This document shows positions 27,389 to 64,000 of a DNA stretch of 64,000 nucleotides, piece by piece. The DNA is taken from NCBI GenBank assembly GCA_964016885.1, contig OZ024741.1:320788001-320852000 (forward strand), in the 5' to 3' direction. The translations under genes were made by a program, and so were the position numbers. Source of the stretch: Eledone cirrhosa. Lineage: Eukaryota. Below the pieces are notes generated by a model. It ran no database searches. It was not told the DNA's origin and saw nothing but the letters and a program-made list of their open reading frames with translations. Numbering within the stretch: position 1 is the stretch's first letter; each line of letters begins with the position of its first letter.

Positions 27389-27669
27389 AGTAATAATAAT
27401 AAATTTGAAGACTAAAATCCAAAGAGGGCTCGATAAGGATAAATATATATCAAATATATAAGAACCGTAGAGCAAATGTTTATTAAAATAACAGATTAAA
27501 GTTTAAGCAAAGAATCACTGCTTTCGCCCTTAACGGGATCTTCTGAAACTAACAAAGTCAATCTGTAAACGCACTGCGTTTACAGATTGACTTTGTTAGT
27601 TTCAGAAGATCCCGTTAAGGGCGAAAGCAGTGATTCTTTGCTTAAACTTTAATCTGTTATTTTAATAAA
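27389..27669. mobile_element. Family C palindromic insertion
   Basis: Essentially perfect ~95-bp arms centred at 27574, in (TA)n. Five copies of the family are in the window. Confidence 0.85.
27582..27657 (+). ncRNA. Hammerhead variant (U4A core; family C)
   Basis: ACAGATT..AGTTT-CAGAAGA-T CCC gttaa GGG C-GAAA-GCA gtgattctt TGC-TT-AAACT..AATCTGT. Confidence 0.65.
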
Positions 27670-34134: not shown

Positions 34135-34185
<51 letters not shown>

Positions 34186-34189
<4 letters not shown>

Positions 34190-34393
34190 ATAATAAATTT
34201 GAAGACTAAAATCCAAAGAGGCCTCGATAAGGATAAATATATATCAAATATATAAGAACCGTAGAGCAAATATTTATTAAAATAACAGATTATATTTTAA
34301 GCAAAGAATCGCTGCTTTCACTCTTAACGGGATCTTCAGAAGATCCTGTTAAGGGTGAAAGCAGCGATTCTTTGCTTAAACTTTAATCTGTTA

Positions 34394-34400
<7 letters not shown>
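34186..34400. mobile_element. Family C palindromic insertion
   Basis: Centre GATCTTC-A-GAAGATC (34338), flanked by (TA)n. Confidence 0.85.
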
Positions 34401-34466
<66 letters not shown>

Positions 34467-41525: not shown

Positions 41526-41577
41526 TTGTGCTTTCGTGAAATAAATAGGTTTTGTTTTTGTGTACACGAATATATAT

Positions 41578-41866
41578 ATTAAAATAACAGATTAAAGTTT
41601 AAGCAAAGAATCGCTGCTTTCACCTTTAACGGGATCTTCTGAAAATAAAAAAATCAGTCTGTGGACGCAGAAGTAAATATTTCGAAAATTGTTATCTAAA
41701 GCAGATAGCTAGACATACAGACTAAGAAAAAGAAGGGAATGTTGTGCGACGTCATAAGAAAAAGTGAGGAATGACGTATAATCGGAAGTGTTGACATTTA
41801 AAATGTTAAAGAAGTGAATATTTAAATAATGTCTTTAATCTTTTAACAAAATTCAGTAGACAAAAA

Positions 41867-43444: not shown

Positions 43445-43744
43445 CAGTACAGAGAAGTACGAAATACCTCGGCCTCGGGATGGTATCTACATTTTGTGCT
43501 TAGAGAAATAATTCGTCGTAGATTACCGGGTTTTTTTCCGTGCGAAGAAAATCAATAATTTATCGTGAAATAAATACTTTTGTTTATATTTTGTTATTGT
43601 TATTGTGTAGCAGAATGGCCCGGCGTTGCTTGGGATTTGCTGTAGGGTTCTTATATATTTGATATATATTTACCCTATCGAGCCTCGTGAAATAAATACA
43701 TTTGTTTATATTATGTTATTGTATATGCAAAAATATATGTACAC

Positions 43745-44423: not shown

Positions 44424-44443
44424 TCATATACATATATATATAT

Positions 44444-44560
44444 ATTAAAATAACAGATTAAAGTTTAAGCAAAGAATCGCTGCTTTCACTCTTAACGGGA
44501 TCTTCTGAAACTAAAAACACCAATCTGTGAACGCAGAAGTAAATATTTCGAAAAACGTTA
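44444..44560 (-). mobile_element. Family C fragment
   Basis: Identity to 41578-41690. Confidence 0.8.
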
Positions 44561-44699
44561 CACACTATATATATACACACACTATATATATATATATATA
44601 TACACATACACACACACACAGCTACGTCATAATGTCGTAATGCAGACATATATTATAAGGGCACAACGTTATATCTATGATTCTATCTAAAAAGAGAAA

Positions 44700-47926: not shown

Positions 47927-48505
<579 letters not shown>

Positions 48506-48965
48506 ATACTTTGGGAGGGTCATGTTGCCAATAAGAAACACACGCACCAGTTGCTTTCACTTCAATTTATTATATATTTATAAATTTATAAATTTACAAA
48601 TCTACAAACTTATAAATTTCTGGTTGGTTGGTTGGTTCCACAACCAGATAGTTGTTTATATATATAGTCATAGTCCTTTCGTCACACACTCTGTGACCTC
48701 TTCAGTGACTGGGGATTCCTTTCTTCGTTTCTGTGCCTTTTCTTTCTTCTATCCTACGCCATTTTGTTTCTGTGTGTGTGTTGTGTGCTCAGTTTGCGCA
48801 TGTGCCACATCCGGGTGTCTGTGTGTGTTTGTGTTCATTTTTCTATTTGTTTATTTATTTATTGTTGGTTGGTTGTTTGTTCTATGTGTGTGTGTGTTTT
48901 AATTTTGTGTGTCTTTTCAATTGTAAGTTGTTTGTTCTATGTGTGTGTGTGTTTTCATTTTGTCC

Positions 48966-49628
48966 TTAATTGTAAGTTGTGATGTTGCTGTTCCACTCAT
49001 ATTTTCTATTTAATTTTGGTTTTAATTCTTTTATGCTTACTGCCTCTGTAATTTGCCTAAACATTGCGTCTTTTCTGTGCGTGGATTCTATTTTTATTTC
49101 TATGCTCTCTAATCTACCCCTGTGTTCTATCTTAGCATGTTGGTAGAGCACAGATGATTCTTTATTATCTTGGAGGTCTCGCCAGTGTTCATTTATTCGT
49201 TCCCCTATACTACGAGCTGTCTCACCTATGTACACTATATTTGTGTTTCTACATTGTCCTTCAGTACATCTTATGCTATACACTACATTTCTAGTTTTAC
49301 AGTTAATATGGGGGCTTATTTTACAGGTTATACATTTCTTATCTATACATGAGGGTCTTTGGAACGGGTATGTCTTGCTAATAAGTGTTTTTACGGAGGT
49401 ACCAGGTCTTTCTACTATCTTAATATTGAGATTATGTTTATTTAGGGCCCTTCTAAATTTGTAGGCTAGTTCGCCTCTAGGGGTTGTATTGATGAACGTT
49501 ACACTCTGGTATTTATTGCTATTATACCATGAGTTTATTCTATTGGCCTTGTTCCTAGTTCTTTCTATTCTATTCCAAAATTTGCTCCTATACAAGGGGC
49601 AGGTCCCATTTATGTCATTATTTACCAT
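48966..49628 (-). CDS. PLE C-terminal fragment with GIY-YIG endonuclease (left arm)
   Basis: Open frame with C-x4-C-x2-C linker, NVVYSIRC..C....VYIGETARS..ER..EH, and RQITEAV.I...KP.LN. Confidence 0.8.
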   Translation of the reverse strand: MVNNDINGTCPLYRSKFWNRIERTRNKANRINSWYNSNKYQSVTFINTTPRGELAYKFRRALNKHNLNIKIVERPGTSVKTLISKTYPFQRPSCIDKKCITCKISPHINCKTRNVVYSIRCTEGQCRNTNIVYIGETARSIGERINEHWRDLQDNKESSVLYQHAKIEHRGRLESIEIKIESTHRKDAMFRQITEAVSIKELKPKLNRKYEWNSNITTYN

Positions 49629-49669
49629 TTTCTTTTTTTTTTTTTTTTTTCCCCATTTGGGAACCAAAA

Positions 49670-50332
49670 ATGGTAAATAATGACATAAATGGGACCTGCC
49701 CCTTGTATAGGAGCACATTTTGGAATAAAATAGAAAGAACTAGGAACAAGGCCAATAGAATAAACTCATGGTATGATAGCAATAAATACCAGAGTGTAAT
49801 GTTCATCAATACAACCCCTAGAGGCGAACTAGCTTACAAATTTAGTAGGGCCCTAAATAAACATAATCTCAATATTAAGATAGTAGAAAGACCTGGTACC
49901 TCCGTAAAAACACTTATTAGCAAGACATACCCGTTCCAAAGACCCTCATGTATAGATAAGAAATGTATAACCTGTAAAATAAGCCCCCATATTAACTGTA
50001 AAACTAGAAATGTAGTGTATAGCATAAGATGTACTGAAGGACAATGTAGAAACACAAATATAGTGTACATAGGTGAGACAGCTCGTAGTATAGGGGAACG
50101 AATAAATGAACACTGGCGAGACCTCCAAGATAATAAAGAATCATCTGTGCTCTACCAACATGCTAAGATAGAACACAGGGGTAGATTAGAGAGCATAGAA
50201 ATAAAAATAGAATCCACGCACAGAAAAGACGCAATGTTTAGGCAAATTACAGAGGCAGTAAGCATAAAAGAATTAAAACCAAAATTAAATAGAAAATATG
50301 AGTGGAACAGCAACATCACAACTTACAATTAA
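49670..50332 (+). CDS. PLE C-terminal fragment with GIY-YIG endonuclease (right arm)
   Basis: Same motifs, 220 open codons. This is a truncated transposon ORF; expression is unknown. Confidence 0.8.
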   Translation: MVNNDINGTCPLYRSTFWNKIERTRNKANRINSWYDSNKYQSVMFINTTPRGELAYKFSRALNKHNLNIKIVERPGTSVKTLISKTYPFQRPSCIDKKCITCKISPHINCKTRNVVYSIRCTEGQCRNTNIVYIGETARSIGERINEHWRDLQDNKESSVLYQHAKIEHRGRLESIEIKIESTHRKDAMFRQITEAVSIKELKPKLNRKYEWNSNITTYN

Positions 50333-50609
50333 GGACAAAATGAAAACACACACACACATAGAACAAACAACTTACAATTGAAAAGACACACAAAATTAAA
50401 ACACACACAGGACAAAATGAAAACACACACACACATAGAACAAACAACCAACCAACAATAAATAAATAAACAAATAGAAAAATGAACACAAACACACACA
50501 GACACCCGGATGTGGCACATGCGCAAACTGAGCACACAACACACACACAGAAACAAAATGGCGTAGGATAGAAGAAAGAAAAGGCACAGAAACGAAGAAA
50601 GGAATCCCC

Positions 50610-50654
50610 AGTCACTGAAGAGGTCACAGAGTGTGTGACGAAAGGACTATGACT
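50610..50654 (+). ncRNA. Minimal hammerhead in PLE pLTR; mirror copy at 48666-48710 (-)
   Basis: AGTCA-CTGAAGA-G-GTCACA gagtg TGTGAC-GAAA-GGAC-TA-TGACT. Confidence 0.7.
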
Positions 50655-50876
50655 ATATATATAAACAACTATCTGGTTGTGGAACCAACCAACCAACCAG
50701 AAATTTATAAGTTTGTAGATTTGTAAATTTATAAATTTATAAATATATAATAAATTGAAGTGAAAGCAACTGGTGCGTGTGTTTCTTATTGGCAACATGA
50801 CCCTCCCAAAGTATAACAATATCGGTTTCAACACACGATTTCAGATAAAGAATCTTGCTAAACAAATTCAGAAACG

Positions 50877-63838: not shown

Positions 63839-63842
<4 letters not shown>

Positions 63843-64000
63843 ATAATAATAAATTTGAAGACTAAAATCGAAAGAGGGCTCGATAAGGATAAATATATAT
63901 CAAATATATACGAACCGTAGAGCAAATATTTATTAAAATAACAGATTAAAGTTTAAGCAAAGAATCGCTGCTTTCACCCTTAACGGGATCTTCTGAAACT
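63839..64000 (-). mobile_element. Family C copy running off the window end
   Basis: Near-identical to 27389-27550. Confidence 0.85.

Follow-up and report, generated by a model that had tools for sequence, protein, structure and literature searches.

Is a hammerhead-shaped motif that carries adenine at core position 4, where the canonical ribozyme has uridine, a natural variant of the hammerhead, or a set of decayed copies? The question is raised by positions 27582-27657 of a 64,000-nt stretch of the Eledone cirrhosa genome (hereafter the window), where sequence and pairing allow a complete type I hammerhead shape to be drawn on the plus strand. Its parts are as follows, all read from the sequence, with pairing and energies also considered for the whole motif.

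27582..27657, plus: hammerhead-shaped motif, with A4 at 27604
27603..27609, plus: core C3-A4-G5-A6-A7-G8-A9 (CAGAAGA, replacing CUGANGA)
27582-27590/27649-27657, plus: outer stem I, 9 bp
27591-27597, plus: 7-nt bulge of stem I
27598-27602/27644-27648, plus: inner stem I, 5 bp
27610/27622, plus: U10.1/C11.1 mismatch
Stem II, plus: 3 bp, CCC/GGG
27623-27626, plus: GAAA
Stem III, plus: 5 bp including one G-U, with a 7-nt loop
CUU site, plus: predicted cut after 27643

A4 is the sole base that departs from the canonical core; G8, G12 and all other core bases are intact. The canonical type I core is defined by U at position 4 (CUGANGA), which the family lacks, and the motif is a candidate natural hammerhead variant, not a canonical hammerhead.

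The original prediction described five loci in the window, all with A4, a stem III, a CUU site, a Y-Y pair at 10.1/11.1 and a bulged stem I. The CAGAAGA 7-mer is indeed present at all five; the window holds 14 copies of it, where shuffles give 5.6 ± 2.4. The copies are 5'-truncated ends of a transposable element, some of them inverted.

27575..27669, plus: right arm of a fold-back insertion, a 5'-truncated pLTR end that stops at the short 3' end and is followed by (TA)n
27391..27573, minus: left arm, with an identical motif at 27491-27566 (core 27545-27539), an 88-nt long tail and (TA)n flanks
34184..34406, both strands: fold-back copy with its inversion point inside the core (centre 34338)
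41572..41688, minus: old-subfamily stub, core 41641-41635, one mismatch each in stem II and inner stem I
43635..43684, plus: tail fragment of the A4 family, no motif
44438..44562, minus: old-subfamily stub, core 44507-44501, with a stem II mismatch
63841..64000, minus: long-tail copy, core 63995-63989

At 27.4 kb the DNA forms a perfect palindrome whose arms, 95 bp each, carry identical motifs (cores 27603 on the plus and 27545 on the minus strand), and the left arm is 97.8% identical to the full element at locus L041. The copy at 63841..64000 runs more than 500 bp past the window end and keeps the bulged stem I intact. All the listed features are present at 27582-27657, but at 34.3 kb neither arm has the 5' strand of stem I, and since this copy folds back within the core, reading CAGAAGA on the plus arm and CTGAAGA on the minus arm, it cannot vote on position 4. 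The five loci are copies of one transposon family and hence represent one evolutionary event, not five. Inversion junctions inside the core were seen in the window (34330-34346) and at L280 and L282, in a near-palindrome around position 4, and opposite-strand joints at the same core site also occur in contigs from sequencing runs. Several old stubs (window 44562, L048, L059, L068) have their 5' break in common, some 55 nt upstream of the core, a position seen in 7 of 151 copies; these stubs may mark a non-autonomous sub-lineage.

The host of the motif is an autonomous Penelope-like retrotransposon (PLE) of the Hydra clade, and the motif is the hammerhead in its terminal repeat, at the 3' end. 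At L041 the element has a repeat-ORF-repeat order with the two cores 3,259 bp apart, giving a 3.26-kb unit, and ends in (TA)n. Uninterrupted ORFs of 709 aa were found at L103 and L086, and a protein search listed many more frames of 713 codons; between the motif and the ATG downstream of it there are about 190 nt. The single ORF encodes a reverse transcriptase (RT) and, C-terminally, a GIY-YIG endonuclease, with YRDDG and AYIGLT motifs in the 709-aa ORFs. Aligned by eye with the published list, it contains RWR, SDKT, CNCRNRADC and CDLC..E..N..CKH and no CCHH, and the Hydra clade is described by RW[R/K], DKT, a CxCx5C linker, CxxC and CxH flanking conserved E and N, and no CCHH (PMC8557442). 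The clade was assigned by these motifs together with by-eye comparison with published Hydra proteins (PMC8557442); a Pfam scan of two element proteins named no RT or GIY-YIG domain. The protein has 567 relatives at E<=0.001, with 38-57% identity among the matches listed, and when the outside protein nearest to it (57% identical) served as query, with a stricter first look, all matches were 53-57% identical and had the frame lengths of the A4 family. Insertion into (TA)n, pseudo-LTRs, an inverted truncated partner and an optional tail are all present, and tandem and inverted truncated insertions are usual for Hydra-type PLEs (Craig et al. 2021, PMC8557442). Two 3' end points lie downstream of the motif, a short one and one with a long tail, the latter in 62 of 151 copies. 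The Nematis clade, our first guess, was dropped after comparison with the Hydra-clade motif list and Hydra proteins (PMC8557442). A Naiad element was rejected because the endonuclease is C-terminal, not N-terminal, to the RT, and a non-LTR retrozyme (a non-coding tandem repeat of ~170-400 nt) because what is copied here is a coding element of 3.26 kb, of which the copies are truncated ends.

Besides the single ORF with RT and GIY-YIG, the shared motifs and the (TA)n targets, the element resembles the Hydra clade as described in the available portions of PMC8557442 in its tandem or inverted truncated insertions and in a type I hammerhead near the 3' end with U-U or U-C at 10.1/11.1. It differs from that description in A4, where all 25 listed families have U, in G15.2-C16.2 instead of C-G, in the 7-nt loop III and 7-nt stem I bulge, and in its 3.26-kb unit, whereas the published elements are generally <3 kb. 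Since the hammerhead sequences are unlike, it is a different family from Hydra-1_Obim (PMC8557442).

A4 is a trait of this family and not the decay of single copies, as had been proposed. When A, T and C at position 4 were counted within an exact 21-mer over the 3.0-Gb genome, A4 occurred 23,051 times, U4 103 times and C4 58 times; since the same 21-mer shows a non-G base at the essential G5 in 462 cases, the U4 copies lie at the mutational background. Of 16,790 matches to a pattern that has its anchor outside the motif, the 100 listed all show A4 (read by eye), and all 151 copies collected without selection on the core carry A4. The family thus has at least 23,051 copies, but "young" describes it only in part: a young subfamily exists, and A4 is common to four successive subfamilies, sorted by six diagnostic columns and ~11% apart. 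U4 and C4 copies are spread over several subfamilies without forming a clade. An ancestral U4 subfamily was rejected, because of the 30 U4 loci taken, 11 of them without a copy long enough to align, the 19 aligned copies fell into the old (11), mid (1) and young (2) subfamilies or were unclassified (5), and the 8 U4 tips among 80 tree tips form no clade. No position-4 variant appeared among the matches listed from contigs of four sequencing runs, two organisms being represented by only 3 and 7 contigs, and we draw no conclusion from this. Nor did an A4 sister family emerge among the matches listed: a Hydra-type A4 pattern had 3,080 matches against 1,084 for the control, and the 100 listed, judged by eye, resemble mutants of the A4 family and of canonical families, RT coding sequence or chance matches.

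Compared with related sequences, only A4 is unusual; the Y-Y pair, CUU and a closed stem III are ordinary for this group of elements. A Y-Y pair is present as described, but the pair of the family is U-U, with U-C in 1 of the 151 unselected copies and U at 11.1 in the other 150, and the C at 27622 is a local variant. The bases C3, G5, A6, G8, A9, G12, A13 and A14, the pair A15.1-U16.1 and the NUH site are the majority bases, each in >=98% of the 151 copies, and the cleavage-site triplet of the family is CUU. In File S2 of PMC8557442, ctga stands in 26 of 26 Hydra rows, that is, in 25 of 25 families, and a Y-Y pair in 15 of 25 (U-U in 14, U-C in one), both counted by eye; U10.1-U11.1 is the best-tolerated mismatch (PMC3088659). 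Among the loci examined and in the window, all other hammerhead families that pass our descriptor have U4. One of them, in the same genome, has a canonical CUGAAGA core with U-U and CUU, 6,028 exact matches and U4 in 100 of the 100 listed; its copies (L203-L227, G000 C1) have a loopless palindromic stem III and often form inverted pairs ~100 bp apart.

The fold energies of seven sequences had z-scores of -1.15 to +0.37 relative to shuffles, that is, no extra stability. All pairs of the three-helix form can form with stem I open, in a target fold 1.9-2.1 kcal/mol above the minimum, and inner stem I has a predicted probability of 0.07-0.13 in intact copies. A competing hairpin is predicted between the stem I bulge and the core, and pairing of A14 with U17 is possible; the hairpin is not specific to A4, since a similar one is found in natural U4 copies. 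The Rfam hammerhead models had no match in the window or in L041, and they miss this architecture, because the canonical-core Hydra-type loci L203 and L159 are also unmatched. The assignment to hammerheads is thus made from the core bases, the pairing and the genomic context, fold energies and Rfam giving it no support.

The history of the subfamilies suggests that the motif is under constraint. Between the oldest and the youngest subfamily, 45 of 413 upstream columns differ (three of them diagnostic columns, and one 4-nt deletion counted as four), whereas none of 63 differs from the core to the short end (-7 to +55; binomial P 0.0007 at the upstream rate), although this interval was drawn after seeing the data and the far-upstream sample of old copies is small (>=5 copies per column). 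In the region of the 5' strand of stem I 3 of 22 columns differ, all of them unpaired (-22, -12 and -8), and in the tail 1 of 92. Within the young subfamily, upstream DNA likewise varies more (404/22,980) than the motif (23/3,784), and in old copies old-type upstream DNA is joined to the same motif. These figures make it very improbable that a dead motif merely hitchhiked in one source element and was kept by chance or by homogenisation of element ends, even though one lineage of ~11% divergence was sampled, the conserved interval was chosen afterwards, and copies mutate neutrally after insertion, with 83 of 3,322 pair cells (22 pairs × 151 copies) broken. What is conserved is another matter. 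Stem covariation, which the original prediction had proposed as a test, fails within the family: among the same 3,322 cells there was no two-sided compensatory change, in a family that is maybe too shallow for one, and 109 double mutants and chance matches contained no compensated stem II subfamily. Since the stems are no better preserved than loops II and III, and most of the tail is conserved as well, the constraint acts on the sequence and need not be catalytic. GCTC...GAGC hairpins lie a few bases past each 3' end point, at L041:1999-2044 (38-nt loop) and L041:2086-2103 (8-nt loop), with one in the window at 27428-27473 on the minus strand; they may explain the conservation of the tail.

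In the A4 family 5' ends do not pile up at the cut site: of 39 ORF-bearing alignments 20 run through the upstream cut site, none begins there and 19 start further downstream (one of these abuts a locus edge, another an N gap), and the 30 stub junctions start over +39 to +50, with 2 at +41. The read-through in 20 of 39 implies that the templates were uncut, or re-joined, at the upstream site. The Anolis Poseidon element is similar in having two 3' ends past the hammerhead and copies made from RNA with an uncut motif, but it belongs to another PLE clade, and its motif has a canonical core and overlaps the ORF start (Frangieh et al. 2024, PMC11167929). In that system the canonical hammerhead cleaved only when its protein was present, and insertion mainly used uncut RNA as template (PMC11167929).

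We consider it somewhat probable (about 0.55) that the A4 motif is an attenuated, possibly protein-assisted self-cleaving ribozyme kept by selection. U4 is likely ancestral and would have changed once to A4, in the source element of the family, as U4 is found in 25 of 25 Hydra families and in all other families examined. The change would lower the cutting rate. Reverse transcription probably starts downstream of the motif, so that inheritance of the motif would need uncut or re-joined RNA; a slow cutter may then be tolerated or even favoured, because only such RNA passes the motif on and slow cutting would cost little. Occasional cutting could still produce unit-length RNA from tandem transcripts. 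Substitutions of U4, studied by Ruffner et al. in 1990, reportedly leave measurable residual activity in minimal hammerheads. Several results speak against an active ribozyme: the low activity of CUGA-turn mutants in another hammerhead (PMC9901934), the lack of two-sided stem changes, loops and tail as conserved as the stems, the low predicted probability of inner stem I and the lack of a 5'-end pile-up at the cut site.

Reduced yet biologically tolerated activity is a published pattern among natural core variants (PMC3088659, PMC7151607): the viroid U4C hammerhead is slow in vitro and sufficient in the viroid (PMC3088659), and A6C is functional with Mn2+ (Naghdi et al. 2020, PMC7151607). Like U4C, U3-A8, A6C and U15.1-A16.1 (Perreault et al. 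2011, PMC3088659; PMC7151607), the A4 motif departs from the core once and is complete otherwise; unlike those variants, this candidate is U4A, a purine and not U4C, and is fixed in tens of thousands of retroelement copies. The U3-A8 minimal hammerheads of the Schistosoma PLE Cercyon also combine a family-level core change with a PLE terminal repeat, but there the change is a compensated pair and stem III is of the minimal dimer type, whereas A4 has no visible partner change and stem III is closed (Cervera and De la Pena 2014, PMC4209133).

Less probable, though the most serious alternative to an attenuated ribozyme, is that the ribozyme is catalytically dead and that its sequence persists because it gives the RT-endonuclease a signal for binding or folding, or belongs to an internal promoter, next to the starts of reverse transcription. 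Conservation at the sequence level, including loops and tail and without covariation, would agree with this, as would the lack of a cutting footprint in the DNA. Catalytic mutants of a PLE hammerhead had no effect on insertion in vitro (PMC11167929), and Naiad PLEs, which lack canonical hammerheads, attain high copy numbers (PMC8557442). On the other hand, a canonical core is kept in all listed published Hydra families (PMC8557442), and here every catalytic base except U4 is canonical, a weak argument, as only ~1 change is expected among ~11 positions at 11% divergence.

Efficient cleavage is unlikely in either of two forms. In the first, the uridine turn would be rebuilt with a purine and the RT-endonuclease of the element would switch the motif on from an off-fold between bulge and core; if true, this would be the first U4A hammerhead found to work, and a protein-gated ribozyme would time the cutting of retroelement RNA. 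In the second, which we find a little more doubtful still, A4 would be compensated by A7, the U-U pair, docking of the stem I bulge on loop II or a protein, and the motif would cleave about as well as canonical Hydra hammerheads. The success of the family (23,051 copies or more, where one canonical-core comparator has 6,028) and the U4 revertants that never expanded could be read in its favour. U at 1.7 and A at the 3' end of loop II, which we take to be the type I tertiary contact pair, are also both present. But copy number is no measure of ribozyme rate, A7 and U-U are not specific, as another family of this genome combines both with U4, and when all mutants of a different hammerhead were scanned, those with one or two changes in the CUGA turn had low activity and were unrescued by second changes, except the C3-G8 swap (PMC9901934).

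The family offers a natural test between "slow cutting is enough" and "cutting is not needed" in PLE hammerheads, because it grew to more than 23,000 copies with a core substitution that is known to slow other hammerheads and has otherwise left the motif unaltered. If the A4 motif cleaves well, the core consensus and all searches based on CUGANGA are too narrow. The surprise is limited, since this type of element, the Y-Y pair and the existence of core variants were known before; the family-wide U4A core is real and appears to add a further form to the motif. Full-text searches returned no natural U4A or CAGANGA-type core, although Figures 5 and S6/S7 of PMC3088659 could show one; literature searches on PLE hammerheads and cephalopods gave no relevant hits, and there is no U4A in the available portions of PMC13725137, PMC7229834, PMC11014351, PMC6765202, PMC6155905 and bioRxiv 10.64898/2026.07.22.740005.

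Other hammerhead-like motifs occur in the window and elsewhere. Canonical CTGAAGA motifs with a stem II of 5-6 bp lie at 48705 (minus) and 50615 (plus), in both arms of a large fold-back element (inverted repeat 48498-50822) whose family is also found in L017, L039 and L064. Further U4 motifs or remnants, from at least three other families, are at 1434, 27946, 63719 and 29355 (all minus) and 35926 (plus), those at 1434 and 27946 having the Hydra-type U-U or Y-Y at 10.1/11.1. The segment 54000-62000 is GC-richer, apparently protein-coding and retroelement-like. At G000:C1:53356631-53369063, seven tandem A4 copies of another Hydra-type motif lie within 13 kb, with three more elsewhere among the 100 matches listed; this array is probably a locally duplicated mutant of a family that has U4 in the loci examined.
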